Positions 5,018 to 10,896 of a DNA stretch of 20,368 nucleotides are shown one piece after another (the first letter of the stretch is position 1; every line of letters begins with the position of its first letter). Below the pieces are notes generated by a model. That model was not told the DNA's origin, searched no databases, and saw only the letters and a list, made by a program, of their open reading frames with translations. Both the position numbers and the translations under genes were made by a program. The DNA is from a virus (taxonomy: Duplodnaviria > Heunggongvirae > Uroviricota > Caudoviricetes), in the IMG/VR virus record IMGVR_UViG_2563366803_000006; one strand, written 5' to 3'.

Positions 5018-6475
5018 ATGAATACATCTCATGTAAGAGTTGTTACTCATATGTGTGGGTTCCTGGTTTGGCTCTATAGTCTTTCAATGTTGCCACCAAT
5101 GGTTGTAGCATTGTTTTATAAAGAAAAAAGCCTGTTCGTTTTCTTTATAACTTTCGTTATATTTTTTTGTATTGGTGGCGGAGCGTGGTATACAACTAAG
5201 AAATCTGGCATTCAATTACGTACCCGTGATGGGTTTATTATAATTGTAATGTTTTGGATTTTGTTTTCTGTTATTAGTGCATTCCCTTTATGGATTGACT
5301 CAGAACTTAATTTAACGTTCATTGATGCTCTGTTTGAAGGGGTTTCTGGAATAACAACAACAGGAGCAACTGTAATTGATGATGTTAGTTCATTACCTCG
5401 GGCATATTTGTACTATCGGTCACAGTTAAATTTTATAGGTGGTTTAGGAGTTATTGTTCTGGCGGTTGCTGTATTGCCATTATTGGGTATTGGTGGTGCA
5501 AAGCTTTATCAGTCAGAAATGCCGGGGCCATTTAAGGATGACAAACTCACTCCCCGCCTGGCCGATACGTCACGGACACTGTGGATAACTTATTCTTTAT
5601 TAGGTATTGCTTGTATTGTCTGTTATAGACTTGCAGGAATGCCTTTGTTTGATGCTATTTGTCACGGGATTTCCACAGTTTCGCTTGGTGGTTTCTCAAC
5701 TCATAGCGAGAGTATCGGATATTTTAATAACTATTTGGTTGAGCTGGTGGCTGGTTCTTTTTCCCTGCTATCGGCTTTCAACTTCACTCTTTGGTATATT
5801 GTTATTAGCAGGAAAACGATAAAACCTTTAATCAGAGATATTGAACTTCGTTTCTTTCTGTTAATAGCCTTAGGGGTGATCATTGTTACCTCTTTCCAGG
5901 TCTGGCATATAGGTATGTATGACTTGCATGGAAGTTTTATTCATTCGTTTTTTCTTGCCAGCTCCATGCTCACTGATAATGGTTTAGCTACGCAGGATTA
6001 TGCAAGCTGGCCCACGCACACGATAGTGTTTTTGCTGTTGTCAAGTTTCTTTGGGGGATGTATAGGTTCAACTTGTGGTGGAATTAAGTCACTTCGATTT
6101 CTTATACTTTTCAAACAAAGCAAACACGAGATAAATCAGCTTTCTCATCCCAGAGCGTTGTTGAGTGTAAATGTAGGAGGGAAGATAGTTACAGATCGTG
6201 TAATGAGGTCTGTATGGAGTTTCTTTTTTCTTTATACTCTCTTCACGGTGTTTTTTATACTGGTGTTAAATGGTATGGGATATGATTTTCTTACATCATT
6301 TGCAACAGTGGCTGCATGTATTAATAATATGGGATTAGGTTTTGGGGCTACTGCATCGTCATTCGGAGTGCTTAATGACATTGCAAAATATTTAATGTGC
6401 ATAGCTATGATTCTTGGTCGCCTTGAAATTTATCCTGTTATTATATTGTTTTCAGGTTTTTTTTGGCGCTCCTAA
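5018..6475 (+). CDS. trkG: TrkG/TrkH-family K+ uptake membrane protein (prophage-borne trkG)
   Basis: 485 aa from ATG 5018; multi-pass membrane protein with TrkH-type motifs (GITTTGATV, GIGGAKLYQSEMPGP, GSTCGGIK). Markedly AT-rich coding sequence. Alternative TTG start at 5000 has a better SD (AAGGTGG). Confidence 0.9.
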   Translation: MNTSHVRVVTHMCGFLVWLYSLSMLPPMVVALFYKEKSLFVFFITFVIFFCIGGGAWYTTKKSGIQLRTRDGFIIIVMFWILFSVISAFPLWIDSELNLTFIDALFEGVSGITTTGATVIDDVSSLPRAYLYYRSQLNFIGGLGVIVLAVAVLPLLGIGGAKLYQSEMPGPFKDDKLTPRLADTSRTLWITYSLLGIACIVCYRLAGMPLFDAICHGISTVSLGGFSTHSESIGYFNNYLVELVAGSFSLLSAFNFTLWYIVISRKTIKPLIRDIELRFFLLIALGVIIVTSFQVWHIGMYDLHGSFIHSFFLASSMLTDNGLATQDYASWPTHTIVFLLLSSFFGGCIGSTCGGIKSLRFLILFKQSKHEINQLSHPRALLSVNVGGKIVTDRVMRSVWSFFFLYTLFTVFFILVLNGMGYDFLTSFATVAACINNMGLGFGATASSFGVLNDIAKYLMCIAMILGRLEIYPVIILFSGFFWRS

Positions 6476-6561
6476 TATATGGCTGATTTATAATTGTGAG
6501 TTTAATATTATGTTGACTCACTCATTGATCCAATACTTAACTTTACCAGCAACACCTCCGC

Positions 6562-6597
6562 CCCCAGTAGCACTGGCTGCTGGGGTGCGTTTTATTC
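6562..6597 (+). terminator. Candidate terminator after trkG
   Basis: Inverted repeat CCCCAG (6562-6567) / CTGGGG (6580-6585) with a 12-nt loop, followed by GCGTTTTATT. Confidence 0.3.
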
Positions 6598-6612
6598 ATA
6601 AAGCAAGGATGT

Positions 6613-7404
6613 ATGAGCGAGAAATTAAAGATAGTCTATCGCCCATTACAAGAATTGTCACCGTATGCGCACAACGCCAGGACGCACAGCCCTGAGCAGG
6701 TGGCACAACTGGTAGAAAGTATTAAGCAATTCGGCTGGACTAATCCGGTGCTGATTGACGAAAAGGGCGAAATTATTGCGGGTCACGGTCGTGTTATGGC
6801 GGCTGAAATGCTCAAAATGGATTCTGTTCCGGTCATTGTTCTGTCTGGCCTGACGGATGAGCAGAAAAAGGCGTACCGCCTGGCAGATAATCGCCTGCCG
6901 ATGAATGCTGGCTGGGATGAAGATCTGTTGCGGATGGAGCTGTCGGACCTAATCAATGCTGATTTTGATGTCTCCCTGACAGGCTTCATCCCGACAGAAA
7001 TTGATGAACTGTTGACGGATGTTTTGCCCGGTACAGGAAATGAGGAGGAGCCGTATACGACGAAAATTGATACGCCTGTTTATGAGCCGTCGGGCGGTAA
7101 ACCGGATATCAGTGAACTGTACGACGATACGAAAACGCAGGAGCTGATCAGCCGGATACGTTCGGCTTCCCTTGAGCCTGATATTGAGAAATTCCTCCTG
7201 TGTGCGGCAGAACGTCACACGGTGTTTAATTTCAGCAGAATTGCGGACTATTACGCTCACGCCCCCGCTGAAATTCAGTGTTTTTTCGAGGAGTCGGCGC
7301 TGGTGATCATTGATTATCAGCAGGCTATTGAAAATGGATTTGTCCGGATGACGCAGCGCATGGTGGAGATCATGCATGGTGGTGAGGAGGAGGAATATGC
7401 GTGA
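6613..7404 (+). CDS. ParB-like nuclease (ParB/sulfiredoxin N-terminal) domain protein
   Basis: 263 aa. N-terminal region with ParB-box-like GHGR motif (GEIIAGHGRVMAAEM), acidic C-terminus. SD AAGGA upstream of ATG 6613. Confidence 0.75.
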   Translation: MSEKLKIVYRPLQELSPYAHNARTHSPEQVAQLVESIKQFGWTNPVLIDEKGEIIAGHGRVMAAEMLKMDSVPVIVLSGLTDEQKKAYRLADNRLPMNAGWDEDLLRMELSDLINADFDVSLTGFIPTEIDELLTDVLPGTGNEEEPYTTKIDTPVYEPSGGKPDISELYDDTKTQELISRIRSASLEPDIEKFLLCAAERHTVFNFSRIADYYAHAPAEIQCFFEESALVIIDYQQAIENGFVRMTQRMVEIMHGGEEEEYA

Positions 7405-8329
7405 TGATTTTTGCGCCTTTATTCTGACTCACGGGCGACCGGACAAAGTTCTGACTTACCGGACGTTGCGTCGTGCTGGCTATACCGGGAAAATTTTTAT
7501 CGTTGTTGATGATGAAGATAAGACACGGCATCAGTACATGGCTGAATTTGGTGAACAGGTGCTGGTGTTTTCCAAAACCGATATCGCCAGTCGTTTTGAC
7601 GAAGCCGATAATTTCTGTGACCGCCGCTCAATTTTTTACGCCCGTAATGCCTGTTTCGACCTGGCAAAACTGGTCGGGTGTAAATACTTCATTCAGCTCG
7701 ATGATGATTATCACGAGTTCCAGTTTCGGGTGGATCGCAACTATGACCAGGCCTATTTTCCGATAAGGAAACTGGATGCGATCCTTTCTGAAATGCTGGC
7801 GTACTACGAATCAATACCTGCTCTTTCCATCGCTATGTCGCAGGGCGGGGATTTTCTTGGTGACAATGGCGGCCATGCTTCGTGGGTGAAACGCAAGGCA
7901 ATGAACAGCTTTATCTGTTCGGTTGATCGACCGTTCTCATTCATGGGGCGCATTAACGAGGATGTGAATACGTACACGAATCTCGGTCGCTGTGGTGAAT
8001 TGTTTATGACGATCGGTGCTGTCCAGTTAGGGCAGAAACAGACGCAGAAAAACAGCGGCGGAATGACCGAGCTGTATCTGGATTCCGGAACCTACGTTAA
8101 AAGTTTTTACTCCGTCATGTATGCGCCGTCGTGCGTAAAAATTTCACTGATGGGTGCCAGCCATAAACGCATTCACCATCAGGTCACCTGGAACAACGCT
8201 GCAGTAAAAATCCTTCACGAAAAATACAGGAAGAAGACACCCTGCATATCAATGGGGGTGACAAATGATTCCGTATTCGAAAGTCGAGTCTCTGGCAGCG
8301 TGCCGGATGACTGCACAACAAATCGCTGA
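7397..8329 (+). CDS. Hypothetical protein with GT-A-like nucleotide-sugar transferase signature (DxD-type)
   Basis: ATG 7397 preceded by strong SD GAGGAGGAGGAA and overlapping the ParB-like stop (translational coupling). Alternating beta-strand/acidic pattern (FILTHGRPD, IFIVVDDEDK, YFIQLDDDYHEF). Function inferred only from this pattern. Confidence 0.6.
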   Translation: MRDDFCAFILTHGRPDKVLTYRTLRRAGYTGKIFIVVDDEDKTRHQYMAEFGEQVLVFSKTDIASRFDEADNFCDRRSIFYARNACFDLAKLVGCKYFIQLDDDYHEFQFRVDRNYDQAYFPIRKLDAILSEMLAYYESIPALSIAMSQGGDFLGDNGGHASWVKRKAMNSFICSVDRPFSFMGRINEDVNTYTNLGRCGELFMTIGAVQLGQKQTQKNSGGMTELYLDSGTYVKSFYSVMYAPSCVKISLMGASHKRIHHQVTWNNAAVKILHEKYRKKTPCISMGVTNDSVFESRVSGSVPDDCTTNR

Positions 8330-8516
8330 CGTTCTGGATGTTGATCTGAACCGACTGAAAGAAAATCGGGAAGCAATGACAGATTTTTATGCGGCCATCC
8401 GTAAGGGCAGAGCGAAAGGTGAAGCCGAGTTACGAGCGGCATTGTTTAAGCTTGCCAGAAAAGGGGATGCCTTTGCTCTGCGCGAACTACTCAGGGTGGA
8501 TAAAAATCAGGACTAA
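8307..8516 (+). CDS. Small putative DNA-binding (HTH-like) protein upstream of terS
   Basis: 69 aa MTAQQIADVLDVDLNRLKENRE... helical and basic; start overlaps the upstream gene; stop is 3 nt before the terS ATG and in the same frame. Confidence 0.5.
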   Translation: MTAQQIADVLDVDLNRLKENREAMTDFYAAIRKGRAKGEAELRAALFKLARKGDAFALRELLRVDKNQD

Positions 8517-8519
8517 CTG

Positions 8520-9614
8520 ATGAGCAGACCGGACTGGGGGGCGTTGCAGCAGGAGTATATTGCTGAATACACCCGCTCCGGTATATCTCCGGTGGCATGG
8601 TGTGAAGCAAGGGGACTGAATTACGCAACAGCCCGTCGTTACATCAAAAAAACTCCGAAAAATGCGCAGACAGAAATGCGCAAAACTGCGCAAAAAAGTG
8701 CGCAGAAAAAATCTGCGCAGACTGCACAAAAGCGGAACGAAAAATCTCAGGAAAAAAAGCCAGTATTCGATGCGGGCCTGAATGAGGGCGACGCGGAGGA
8801 ATTTTCGTTCTGTCCCGATGAATTCGGCATTTCTGACCAGCAGGCTAAGTTTGCGATGCTTGTTGCTCAGGGTAAAAAGCCGACAGAGGCGTACCGACTA
8901 GCCGGTTATGAGGGGCAAGGTGCGACAGCTAACAGCAACGCCAGTCGTATGCTTAGAAATGCCAGGGTTTATCGTGCTATCAGCTACTTCCGCAATCAGT
9001 ACCAGAAACGCTATACCGCAGACCTGGATTTACTGGTGAGCCAGTTGATGGTCATTGTCCAGGCCGACCCCAATCAGTTGGCACAATTTCGCCGTGTTAA
9101 CTGCCGTTATTGCTGGGGCGAGAATCATCTCTACCAGTGGCGTGATATTGCAGAATTCGATAAGGCTGCGGCACAGGCCTCCAGAGATGGTAAACCCGAG
9201 CCGGAATATGGAGGCCTCGGCTTTGTTGATAACGCCATACCCAATCCGGATTGCCCGAAGTGCTGCGGTGAGGGAACGGGACAGCTTTATATGGCTGATA
9301 CCACACTGCTTGATGGGGATGCGCGGCAATTATATGCAGGGTCAAAGCTCGGAAAATACGGTGTTGAGATCCTGCTGGAGGATAAGGCTGCCGCCCGGCG
9401 TGAATTGTTGCGTTTGCTTTCTGCTGGCGGGGCATTATGTGCAGATAAGCGGCTACAGGAACTGGAAATTGAACGGCGCAGAATAGAAAACCAGAAGCTG
9501 CACAAAGAGATCGAAACGGTGGAAGATAATGAACATCCCCAGCCTGTGGCGATCAATATTAATGTGGTTGATGCCAGAGTAAGGAGTGATGAAGATGATC
9601 TCTCCGACGCTTAA
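8520..9614 (+). CDS. Terminase small subunit (long form with N-terminal HTH, AQK low-complexity linker, Terminase_2-like core and C-terminal Cys cluster)
   Basis: 364 aa. Core motif AYRLAGYEGQGATANSNASRMLRNARVYRAI typical of small terminase subunits; lies immediately upstream of and overlaps terL; CRYC...CPKCC cysteines at 9102-9266. Confidence 0.7.
   Translation: MSRPDWGALQQEYIAEYTRSGISPVAWCEARGLNYATARRYIKKTPKNAQTEMRKTAQKSAQKKSAQTAQKRNEKSQEKKPVFDAGLNEGDAEEFSFCPDEFGISDQQAKFAMLVAQGKKPTEAYRLAGYEGQGATANSNASRMLRNARVYRAISYFRNQYQKRYTADLDLLVSQLMVIVQADPNQLAQFRRVNCRYCWGENHLYQWRDIAEFDKAAAQASRDGKPEPEYGGLGFVDNAIPNPDCPKCCGEGTGQLYMADTTLLDGDARQLYAGSKLGKYGVEILLEDKAAARRELLRLLSAGGALCADKRLQELEIERRRIENQKLHKEIETVEDNEHPQPVAININVVDARVRSDEDDLSDA
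8663..8728. repeat. Cluster of five TGCGCA hexamers (plus one TGCACA) inside terS
   Basis: Exact TGCGCA at 8663, 8677, 8687, 8699 and 8714, each followed by an A-rich tract; encodes the AQK-repeat linker of TerS. Confidence 0.8.
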
Positions 9615-10896
9615 TGTGCCTCAGGCGCGATTTCTTTCAATGCCCCATAAATTTAAAGCCTATATTGCTGGTTTTGGCTCGGGCAAAACATGGGTTGGGT
9701 GTGGCGGCATATGCAAGGGGATTTGGGAGCATCCAGGTATAAATCAGGGATATTTTGCGCCAACGTATCCCCAAATTCGCGATATTTTTTACCCTACAGT
9801 GGAAGAAGTTGCTGCTGACTGGGGATTGAACGTAAAAATTAATGAGGGAAATAAAGAGGTTCACTTTTATTACGGACGCCAGTATCGGGGAACCACTGTC
9901 TGCAGATCGATGGAGAAGCCACAAACGATCGTCGGTTTCAAAATTGGTAATGCGTTGGTGGATGAACTGGACATTTTGCCGAAGGAAAAAGCCAGAACGG
10001 CGTGGCGCAAGATAATTGCACGTATGCGTTATAAGATTGATGGACTTCGCAACGGTATTGACGTTACAACCACGCCGGAAGGATTCAAATTTGTCTACGA
10101 GCAGTTTGTTAAAGCCGTGCGTGAAAAAACAGAGCTGGCCTCACTGTATGGTCTGGTGCAGGCATCTACTTTCGATAATGAAAAGAACCTGCCAGCAGAT
10201 TACATTCCTTCGCTTCTTGAATCATACCCTCCAGAGCTGATTAAAGCCTATCTTCGAGGACAGTTTACTAACCTGACAAGTGGTACTGTTTACCATCAGT
10301 TTGACCGGAAACTGAATAATTGCGAAGAAGTGGAGCAGCCAGGGGAGCCGATTTATATTGGGATGGATTTTAACGTTGGAAAGATGGCGGGAATCGTCCA
10401 TGTGCTGCGTTTGGGGCTTCCATGTGCGGTAACTGAAATCATCAATGCCTACGATACGCCGGATATGATCCGCATCATTAAAGAACGCTTCTGGCTGTAT
10501 GATGGGAATGATTACCGGAAAGTGAGGGAAATTTATATTTATCCAGATGCTTCCGGGGACTCCAGAAAATCAAGTAACGCAAGTACGACGGATATAGCCC
10601 AGCTTAAGCAGGCTGGTTTTAACGTTGTGGTGAACAGCTCGAACCCGCCAGTAAAAGATCGCGTTAACTCAATGAATGCAATGTTCTGCAATGCCAATGG
10701 TGAGCGTCGCTATAAAGTTAATGTGAAGCGTTGCCCGTTATATGCCGAATCTCTGGAGCAACAGGTCTGGGATGAGAAGGGGGAGCCTGATAAAAAATCT
10801 GGCAATGATCACCCGAATGATGCCGGAGGTTATTTCATCGTTAAGCAATTCCCTATTGTCAAACCGACCGGAAGAGTCACATCACTTCGGATTTAA
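9595..10896 (+). CDS. Terminase large subunit
   Basis: Walker A-like YIAGFGSGKTW near the N-terminus; C-terminal nuclease-like region; SD AAGGAG (9581-9586) 8 nt before ATG 9595. In-frame alternatives at GTG 9586 and ATG 9589. Confidence 0.9.
   Translation: MISPTLNVPQARFLSMPHKFKAYIAGFGSGKTWVGCGGICKGIWEHPGINQGYFAPTYPQIRDIFYPTVEEVAADWGLNVKINEGNKEVHFYYGRQYRGTTVCRSMEKPQTIVGFKIGNALVDELDILPKEKARTAWRKIIARMRYKIDGLRNGIDVTTTPEGFKFVYEQFVKAVREKTELASLYGLVQASTFDNEKNLPADYIPSLLESYPPELIKAYLRGQFTNLTSGTVYHQFDRKLNNCEEVEQPGEPIYIGMDFNVGKMAGIVHVLRLGLPCAVTEIINAYDTPDMIRIIKERFWLYDGNDYRKVREIYIYPDASGDSRKSSNASTTDIAQLKQAGFNVVVNSSNPPVKDRVNSMNAMFCNANGERRYKVNVKRCPLYAESLEQQVWDEKGEPDKKSGNDHPNDAGGYFIVKQFPIVKPTGRVTSLRI

Follow-up and report, generated by a model that had tools for sequence, protein, structure and literature searches.

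Introduction

The TAGT family of glycosyltransferases was reportedly defined by Iyer et al. in 2013, who are also said to have proposed that ParB proteins 'direct' modification enzymes. To our knowledge, every characterised DNA glycosyltransferase needs a hydroxyl, provided either by a modified base or by a sugar already on the DNA. Among the characterised relatives, the phage GT-A enzymes associated with 5mYOX glycosylate 5hmC; JGT also acts on DNA, as does the T6 TAGT (PMC13216743). GREB1, a member of the same family, glycosylates a protein (PMC7968844), an observation that speaks against DNA as the target. 'Solitary' TAGT glycosyltransferases, present in 288 of the 753 phage genomes that encode a TAGT, have been flagged as unexplained (PMC13216743), and a base-hydroxylating enzyme is missing from about 65% of phage glycosyltransferase contigs (bioRxiv 10.1101/2023.12.21.572611).

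The phage T-dioxygenase 5mYOX176 needs a ParB without a helix-turn-helix (HTH), ParB176, to act on dsDNA; both the N- and C-terminal parts of ParB176 are needed, and cognate pairs are specific (PMC13229309). Fusions of ParB_N with DNA methyltransferases are enriched in prophages (PMC12704722). Here we describe a two-gene locus of a common E. coli Rac-type prophage, contained in a 20,368-nucleotide stretch of DNA (the window), that encodes a TAGT-family enzyme and an adjoining ParB-like protein.

Results

Gene 2 (7397..8329, + strand) encodes a 310-aa TAGT/GREB1-related GT-A glycosyltransferase. Its product matches TAGT (PF20691) over aa 8-222 with 122.5 bits (cut-off 27.5, E=3e-35) and phrog_842 with E=7e-104. 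The GT-A fold had previously been guessed from the pattern LDDDY, part of QLDDDY at aa 100-105, and the guess proved right: the protein has the GT-A (nucleotide-diphospho-sugar transferase) fold with a DxD metal/donor-binding motif, and its conserved residues are R83, D102-D103-D104 (nt 7700-7708), E188-D189 (nt 7958-7963) and H260-H261. From E. coli to Haloarcula viruses the catalytic R, DDD and HH never vary, and of the two acidic residues at 188-189, D189 is retained. Profile and structure comparisons of the 7397-8329 product led to this family and to no non-transferase fold; all hits of a fold search of BFVD were other TAGT-domain proteins. Confidence in the structure model is low for its C-terminal half, and the structural neighbours include TarP and other envelope GT-A enzymes. 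Searching the PDB by sequence gave no significant match, PADLOC assigned the transferase to no defence system, and no membrane or hydrophobic segment is evident in the translation. TAGT identity is 40-47% across Gram-negative, Gram-positive, actinobacterial and haloarchaeal hosts.

Gene 1 (6613..7404, + strand) is of the ynaK type, and its 263-aa product consists of a ParB/Srx N-terminal domain, a linker and a C-terminal TAGT-partner domain. It matches phrog_620 (E=1e-90) and is named 'ParB/Srx family N-terminal domain-containing protein' by PGAP. The N-terminal domain, with the NTP-binding fold (aa 1-135; 6613..7017, + strand), scores above the gathering threshold of ParB_N (PF02195; 28.9 bits, cut-off 26.3), and aa 10-144 resemble the ParB moiety found in phage fusions of ParB with methyltransferases (phrog_498, E=1e-50; PADLOC MTase_II, E=2.5e-38). 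The GHGR-type motif already remarked on in this ParB-like protein is Box II, G57-H-G-R60 (nt 6781-6792); Box I is N21-A-R23 and Box III D92-N93. Among 180 distinct partners, N21 is kept in 98%, G57 in 99%, R60 in 84% and N93 in 97%. 'Nuclease' is a historical label of the ParB/Srx fold, and the nuclease activity implied by the preliminary description finds no support, as the conserved motifs are those of the NTP-binding ParB/Srx fold. Pfam finds nothing but ParB_N in the protein, with no HTH DNA-binding domain. A partition ParB of the ParABS kind was considered and rejected: TIGR00180 scores 38.4 bits against a cut-off of 58.45, the HTH is missing, and no parA is annotated in the whole prophage. 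Given the scores against ParB_N, phrog_620, PF20691 and phrog_842, the features of the two genes are not chance matches.

The genes overlap by 8 nt (ATGCGTGA), from the ATG of gene 2 at 7397 to the TGA of gene 1 at 7402-7404, and a Shine-Dalgarno-like run, GAGGAGGAGGAA (7384..7395, + strand), can be read directly within the end of gene 1. Both the overlap and the very strong Shine-Dalgarno run had been pointed out before; together they give the pair a geometry of translational coupling, and the PGAP boundaries of both genes are identical in a near-identical genome (99.9%). Upstream, a terminator-like hairpin picked up by consensus scan only (6562..6595, + strand; 10-bp stem with 7 G-C pairs and a T-rich tail) follows the trkG moron, 27 nt 5' of the ParB-like gene. 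The hairpin may insulate the module from trkG transcription, in which case the pair would be transcribed together with the late operon, where it lies between the lysis and terminase genes of the prophage. The pair had been placed just upstream of terS; it does precede the packaging genes, but a small ORF intervenes (8307..8516, + strand; 69 aa by PGAP, phrog_309). The ORF starts within gene 2, sharing 23 nt with it, and resembles part of a small terminase subunit; an 83-aa version of the ORF matches phrog_309 (E=8e-23). The packaging operon then begins with the small terminase subunit (8520..9614, + strand; Terminase_2, E=3.5e-8; phrog_51, E=8e-76), followed by the large subunit (9595..10896, + strand, PGAP boundaries; Terminase_6N, E=1e-32, and Terminase_6C).

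The C-terminal domain of gene 1 (aa 146-263; 7048..7401, + strand) is newly described here. At about 115 aa in this position, it consists of a conserved peptide, Y-T-x-K-I-x-x-P-x-Y-E-P-x-G, followed by a bundle of helices and a tail, both acidic. The peptide is unstructured, and its Y3, P10, Y12 and P19 are invariant in 106 sequences. The domain matches no Pfam family and no PDB fold, and we found no mention of a dedicated partner domain in the TAGT literature consulted. The TAGT enzymes, at a median pI of 8.8, are basic, unlike their acidic partner. That the partner is acidic and carries no DNA-binding domain speaks against a DNA target.

The partner C-domain was found in all 233 of 233 informative loci. 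It is fused to ParB_N in about 79%, and the ParB part is missing in about 20% of lineages; the free-standing form (about 130 aa) belongs to larger phages, often with their own DNA polymerase. Its gene usually overlaps the TAGT start, and in one locus (L265) the partner is fused in-frame to TAGT. The partner does not directly precede TAGT in 15 loci, comprising one fusion, one with the partner downstream and the rest split by intervening genes, which are mostly extra TAGT paralogues. Some loci carry 2-5 tandem TAGT paralogues, which we count as support for a DNA target by comparison with sequential DNA-glycan pathways. The C-domain co-evolves with TAGT, their identities correlating with a Spearman coefficient of 0.42-0.47 versus 0.12 for ParB_N and 0.13 for TerL. 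In line with the preliminary description, the two genes occur together across very distant phages; its pairing of ParB with the transferase has to be redrawn, however, since the constant partner of the transferase is the C-terminal domain of gene 1 and ParB is an optional N-terminal add-on.

ParB-fused versions are present in phages of five phyla, archaea included, with TerL no more than 3.5 kb downstream in 127 of 144 loci (88%) and the terminases belonging to several unrelated families. C-only partners adjoin DNA polymerase A (10 of 22) and also sugar-activating enzymes, and one of them (locus L370) adjoins SHMT and a ThyX-like gene as well. The module is also found in virulent-type and archaeal viruses and is uncoupled from the terminase in larger phages. 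Some Lactobacillus delbrueckii phages carry a decayed copy, and the module is therefore not essential for packaging.

The hallmark of the TAGT family, a TET/JBP (5mYOX) or other source of 5-hydroxymethyl-pyrimidine nearby, was not seen at this locus. Neither the annotation nor our searches revealed a TET/5mYOX, dNMP hydroxymethylase or DNA methyltransferase in the complete Rac-type prophage or in Lactobacillus phage c5 (31.8 kb), and across 51 lineages no such gene is a recurrent neighbour of the module at a distance of up to three genes. The unknown ORFs of the prophage gave no TET_JBP match. Our literature search turned up no modified base reported for any phage with the module and nothing on modified DNA in the module-bearing L. 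delbrueckii phages. The prophage has no recognisable maker of a hydroxylated base, and DNA base glycosylation is still something that we infer.

Discussion

The pair is tentatively read as a self-contained, late-expressed two-gene glycosylation module whose most likely substrate is the dsDNA of the phage itself, shortly before packaging, a reading to which we give a probability of about 0.45. Gene 2, a member of the TAGT/GREB1/base-J family with the GT-A fold, would be a metal-dependent (DxD) glycosyltransferase using a host nucleotide-sugar as donor, and gene 1 would be its adaptor. The acidic helical C-terminal domain, as the dedicated co-evolving partner, probably binds or activates the enzyme, and the ParB/Srx nucleotide-binding domain may load or hold it on dsDNA, a role suggested by likeness to the ParB-like proteins that serve a subclass of the thymine dioxygenases of phages. 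In phages that have a replisome of their own, the ParB part is absent. DNA is favoured as the target because the characterised relatives (T6 TAGT, the 5mYOX-associated GT-A enzymes and JGT) act on DNA; the ParB part is linked to DNA modification because it matches the ParB-methyltransferase fusions and has mostly kept its NTP-binding motifs. Also counted in favour of this reading are the obligate pairing and co-evolution of TAGT with the C-domain, the gene neighbourhoods of the ParB-fused and C-only versions, and the opposite charges of enzyme and partner. The modification may have a protective role.

The main rival to a DNA target, which we consider rather unlikely, is a protein acceptor: the enzyme may glycosylate its own partner at the Y-T-x-K-I-x-x-P-x-Y-E-P-x-G peptide, or a packaging, virion or host protein, with the paralogues extending the glycan. 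GREB1 O-GlcNAcylates ER-alpha (PMC7968844), and a pair of enzyme and substrate would explain obligate pairing with no other conserved gene, the four invariant residues in an unstructured peptide and the failure to find a source of hydroxylated base in the prophage. However, a docking peptide would be just as likely to show conserved Tyr and Pro, ParB domains of this type occur fused to DNA methyltransferases, and C-only versions adjoin DNA polymerase and nucleotide-metabolism genes. The phage relatives with determined targets, T6 TAGT and the 5mYOX-associated GT-A enzymes, also act on DNA.

It is unlikely, but conceivable, that the pair glycosylates unmodified dsDNA directly, at a canonical base or, for example, a terminus. 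The enzyme would then need a host nucleotide-sugar only, and the adaptor would open or present the DNA.

An improbable alternative is that the substrate is DNA hydroxymethylated or glycosylated by others, either that of superinfecting T-even-like phages, making the module an exclusion or anti-phage system, or rare host lesions. The family name and PHROG label do come from enzymes acting on 5hmC or glucosyl-5hmC, and the idea has been raised for prophage glycosyltransferases (bioRxiv 10.1101/2023.12.21.572611). The module nevertheless sits not in a lysogen-expressed position but in the late operon, preceded by a terminator-like hairpin, it is shared with virulent-type and archaeal viruses, and the T6 TAGT belongs to the family only weakly (37 bits), shows no detectable similarity in direct comparison and lacks a partner gene.

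Modification of a cell-envelope glycan to block superinfection (seroconversion of the TarP or Gtr kind) is very improbable. The structural neighbours do include envelope GT-A enzymes such as TarP, but Gtr and TarP enzymes are lysogen-expressed, membrane- or envelope-directed and near the attachment site, a pattern that gene 2 does not follow: it lies in a late/replication module and not beside the integrase, has no evident membrane segment, is paired with a ParB/Srx protein and keeps 40-47% identity across hosts with no common envelope acceptor. Least credible of all is a packaging or partition accessory in which ParB marks pac/cos or segregates DNA and the transferase fold is dead or structural since, although the place directly upstream of terS/terL is kept in 88% of ParB-fused versions, the catalytic R, DDD and HH show no variation between E. 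coli and Haloarcula viruses and D189 is kept, the terminases alongside are of several unrelated families, larger phages have the module uncoupled from the terminase, some L. delbrueckii phages have a decayed copy, and gene 1 has no HTH, no ParA and a TIGR00180 score under the cut-off.

The inducible-type Rac prophage of E. coli offers a tractable setting for a solitary TAGT, and what is new is a TAGT subfamily that always travels with a small domain of no assigned family or known fold. Intact copies of the genes are present, for example, in the Rac-type prophage of strain 537-20 (NZ_CP091534); E. coli K-12 lacks the transferase. With DNA as the target, the pair would amount to a two-gene hypermodification system independent of any precursor pathway, of interest for restriction evasion, phage therapy and DNA-labelling tools; with a protein target, it would define a new phage glycoprotein system. 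If unmodified dsDNA is glycosylated directly, the chemistry would be new among DNA modifications, and about one in six sequenced E. coli strains would carry it, as would viruses of bacteria and archaea. With either target, the module extends an emerging theme of ParB-fold proteins as accessories of DNA-modifying enzymes.

Among known systems, the ParB of ParABS shares with gene 1 the N-terminal nucleotide-binding fold and box motifs, but gene 1 lacks an HTH, a ParA partner and a parS context. The T2/T6 beta-glucosyl-HMC-alpha-glucosyltransferase, source of the phrog_842 label, shares the Pfam family and fold class with gene 2. The T6 enzyme is a marginal PF20691 member (37 bits), and hhalign gives it a probability of 0.1% against the present subfamily; its gene is flanked by those for the hydroxymethylase and uvsX, and no partner gene accompanies it. 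It requires alpha-glucosyl-5hmC, which the Rac-type prophage cannot make, no dCMP hydroxymethylase or alpha-GT gene being present in the prophage. A tblastn search with the transferase (E of 1e-5 or better) found no T-even phage. Given the missing direct similarity and the missing partner gene in T6, we rejected the idea that gene 2 has the T6 function.

The other PF20691 TAGTs, including the 5mYOX-associated phage GT-A enzymes, are likewise phage-encoded, soluble proteins of about 285-310 aa with the GT-A fold and R...DDD...ED motifs, sometimes in tandem arrays. They differ in that here the genome has no TET/5mYOX, C5-methyltransferase or hydroxymethylase and the dedicated partner domain is always present. 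The ParB_N-DNA methyltransferase fusions (phrog_498, PADLOC MTase_II) have a closely related ParB domain, whereas here the catalytic module is separate, is a glycosyltransferase and is joined via an adaptor domain instead of by fusion. The 5mYOX176/ParB176 system has a dioxygenase in place of the glycosyltransferase, and here the conserved element is the C-terminal domain, which is also free-standing. Both systems have an HTH-less ParB-fold gene beside an enzyme that modifies DNA post-replicatively, here a putative one, and the pairing and co-evolution seen here agree with the cognate specificity of 5mYOX176/ParB176. As in ParB-activated systems, an HTH-less ParB lies beside its enzyme and is specifically paired with it, the co-evolution in this case running via the C-terminal part.

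The paired genes and their locus

The region comes from a Rac-type lambdoid prophage of E. coli and covers its early/late junction, where the holin, lysozyme and Rz genes are followed by the trkG moron (end 6475), a terminator-like hairpin, gene 1, gene 2, a 69-aa ORF, terS, terL, and the portal and head genes. The hairpin between trkG and gene 1 (6562-6595; a 10-bp stem with 7 G-C pairs and a T-rich tail) suggests that trkG is an insulated insertion inside the late transcript. As in the preliminary description, gene 1 (6613-7404, + strand) encodes 263 aa with GHGR at residues 57-60, and its stop overlaps the ATG of gene 2 (7397-8329, + strand; overlap ATGCGTGA), which is preceded by a strong SD-like run, GAGGAGGAGGAA, at 7384-7395 and encodes 310 aa with QLDDDY at residues 100-105. 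Both assignments proposed there, a ParB-like protein and a transferase, score far above chance: gene 1 matches Pfam ParB_N above its cut-off and phrog_620 (1e-90), and gene 2 matches the TET-associated glycosyltransferase (TAGT) family PF20691 (122.5 bits, the cut-off being 27.5; E=3e-35) and phrog_842 (7e-104).

In a megablast against 5426 complete E. coli genomes, positions 6400-8600 matched 1619 of them at 95-100% identity, and 867 of these 1619 contain at least 80% of the stretch; about 16% of complete E. coli genomes carry the module, which we did not find described in the literature. PGAP names the products "ParB/Srx family N-terminal domain-containing protein" (ynaK) and "GREB1-related protein". 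The 87-aa ynaK of K-12 is a 5' remnant of gene 1. In one genome with a 100% match to the queried 2.2-kb stretch, PGAP calls ynaK a 258-nt pseudogene "missing C-terminus" (L088:20214-20471) even though the 263-aa ORF is intact there; this is consistent with such an origin, and the K-12 remnant appears to have served as the reference for the call. Full-length gene 1 is annotated by PGAP in other genomes.

Gene 2 is followed by a small ORF of 69 aa (8307-8516; 83 aa if it begins at the alternative start, 8265), which shares its first 23 nt with the end of gene 2. It matches the central part of phrog_309, a family of small terminases (E=8e-23), and this raises the possibility that the small terminase is split or has a further DNA-binding subunit. 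The translation of terS itself (8520-9614) is unusually long (364 aa) and contains a cysteine-rich stretch, NCRYCWGENH ... CPKCCGEG, resembling a zinc ribbon.

A predicted GT-A transferase

An AlphaFold2 model of gene 2 built with 27 homologues is confident in its N-terminal half (pLDDT 85-97) and poor in its C-terminal half; searching a viral structure library with it returned TAGT-domain proteins. At least 8000 homologues occur in a set of 5.8 billion proteins. Those at 26-48% identity, from Lactobacillus, Nocardia, Vibrio and Porphyromonas phages and the haloarchaeal virus HHTV-2, keep R83, D102-D103-D104, D189 and H260-H261, which correspond to the R...DDD...ED motifs reported for phage GT-A glycosyltransferases acting on 5hmC in DNA (bioRxiv 10.1101/2023.12.21.572611).

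The PHROG label "beta-glucosyl-HMC-alpha-glucosyltransferase" originates with phage T6, whose enzyme is a marginal PF20691 member (37 bits). No direct similarity was found between the T6 enzyme and the gene 2 subfamily (hhalign probability 0.1%), and no partner gene lies beside it. We therefore rejected the T6 substrate for gene 2; it should not be transferred.

In several dairy phages of Lactobacillus delbrueckii (phiLdb, Ld17, LL-Ku and Ld25A; search hits H49-H61) the transferase gene is in two pieces or survives as a 45-aa remnant, and it is intact in relatives such as Lactobacillus phage c5. Phages can therefore grow on laboratory or dairy hosts without the module.

The C-terminal domain of the partner co-occurs with the transferase

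The preliminary description had treated the two genes as a pair. Five differently anchored enzyme alignments were used to gather 368 loci from IMG/VR and GenBank phages, which were scanned with HMMs from six partner proteins divided into N-terminal (ParB) and C-terminal parts; among 239 distinct enzymes, flanks sufficed for judgement in 233. The C-domain (residues ~146-263 of the gene 1 protein) is encoded on the same strand in 233 of 233 judgeable loci, a figure that holds for the TAGT subfamily of gene 2, by similarity to which the loci were picked, and not for all of PF20691. The pairing thus stands for the C-domain, but not for the ParB part, as ParB_N is fused in only 184 of these loci. 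The C-domain is free-standing (~130 aa) in roughly 42-49 others; in Vibrio phage pv27, for instance, it is encoded by an unannotated gene (L086:5459-5878) that lies upstream of the enzyme. In a single metagenome case to be read with caution (L265:5287-6855), ParB_N, C-domain and TAGT share one 522-aa ORF, perhaps a fusion that occurs in nature, perhaps the product of a frameshift error in the assembly.

Pairwise-identity matrices of enzyme and C-domain correlate (Spearman 0.42-0.47) more strongly than those of enzyme and ParB domain (0.12) or of enzyme and neighbouring large terminase (0.13). Enzyme and C-domain therefore form the co-evolving unit, with the ParB domain as an exchangeable addition to it. 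The C-domain has no family in Pfam or NCBIfam. It is acidic (median pI 4.7 versus 8.8 for the enzyme) and is modelled as a compact helical bundle (core pLDDT > 90). The peptide in front of the bundle, Y-T-x-K-I-x-x-P-x-Y-E-P-x-G, is unstructured in the model and highly conserved. When 1.84 billion cluster representatives were searched exhaustively with a profile of the domain, 1413 members were found, 876 with E <= 1e-30; among the best 150 of the 1413, lengths are mostly about 130-170 or 240-310 aa.

Fifteen loci have 2-5 tandem TAGT paralogues, with five beside a single C-domain gene in L306:4249-9218, and such arrays suggest an oligosaccharide built stepwise. Arrays of 2-5 TAGTs with one C-domain gene also occur in loci L309, L317, L288, L281 and others, often with cytidylyltransferase-like genes.

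Two genomic settings

Where the partner is ParB-fused, a large terminase gene follows within 3.5 kb in 127 of 144 loci, and none of 96 loci has DNA polymerase A in the vicinity. Where it is C-only, a terminase gene follows in 5 of 32 loci and DNA polymerase A is close by in 10 of 22. The neighbouring terminases belong to several unrelated families (Terminase_6N, 20; Terminase_3, 16; GpA, 3; T7-type, 2) and the genes upstream of the module are variable; what stays constant is that the module opens the late operon, not which packaging enzyme it accompanies. In larger phages, the neighbours of the C-domain and its one or more TAGTs include DNA polymerase A, nucleotidyltransferases and CofD-like genes. 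One 123-kb gut phage metagenome contig (L370:1-20402) encodes, in order, SHMT, a weak ThyX-like hit, DnaB, primase, DNA polymerase A, an unknown gene, the C-domain, a CofD-like protein, an NTP transferase, two TAGTs and RecA, which looks like a full DNA hypermodification cluster around the C-domain/TAGT pair.

The ParB domain of gene 1 has no HTH and no ParA partner and scores under the partition-ParB cut-off. It is most closely related to the ParB domains of phage DNA-methyltransferase fusions (phrog_498, E=1e-50; PADLOC MTase_II, E=2.5e-38). Most of the 180 distinct fused partners retain the motifs for nucleotide binding (N21 98%, R23 77%, G57 99%, H/N58 98%, R60 84%, D92 85%, N93 97%). Some lineages, among them Nocardia phage NTR1 (L005:3-1720) and Porphyromonas phages (L087:5136-5993), have lost the box II arginine, with GNHT and GNKT replacing GHGR in these two, and kept the C-domain. 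The ParB part may thus not have to bind a nucleotide in every lineage.

Possible substrates and relation to known systems

The best-supported reading is a glycosylation system with two components, a GT-A enzyme and an adaptor dedicated to it. Where a phage depends on the host replisome, the adaptor would be extended by a ParB-type nucleotide switch and the pair expressed with the packaging genes, while phages with their own replication module would not need the ParB part. The phage's own dsDNA would then be modified after replication and before packaging. By analogy, ParB-methyltransferase fusions, dioxygenases that depend on a ParB protein and those relatives of the enzyme that act on DNA all point to such a substrate, to which we give a probability of roughly 0.45, and only that because the acceptor problem is real. 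No TET/5mYOX, dNMP hydroxymethylase or cytosine methyltransferase is annotated in the complete Rac-type prophage or in the 31.8-kb phage c5, and no TET_JBP match was found among the scanned larger unassigned ORFs of both; hence the usual acceptor of DNA glycosyltransferases is likely not made by this phage. "Solitary" glycosyltransferases have already been flagged as unexplained (PMC13216743; bioRxiv 10.1101/2023.12.21.572611).

The main alternative, less probable than the DNA reading, is that the sugar goes to a protein, which could be the partner itself at its invariant Tyr/Thr peptide. GREB1, a family member, has a protein as its glycosylation target (PMC7968844). Lower probabilities go to action on foreign hydroxymethylated DNA, to modification of an envelope glycan and to a role in packaging without catalysis.

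A subclass of phage thymine dioxygenases was shown to require a cognate ParB-like protein for dsDNA activity, with both the N- and C-terminal parts of that protein needed (PMC13229309, 2026); like the gene 1 product, this protein is HTH-less. A 2025 survey of the ParB-CTPase fold (PMC12704722) describes methyltransferase and DUF fusions in phages and names no glycosyltransferase among the partners. Previous work already covers the enzyme family and the ParB fold, as well as the proposal that ParB proteins assist DNA-modifying enzymes, and the gene had already been named by PGAP. New relative to the literature we found are the occurrence of the module without any precursor pathway, the split between ParB-fused, terminase-linked partners and free-standing, often polymerase-linked ones, and the obligate pairing of the TAGT subfamily of gene 2 with an undescribed domain.
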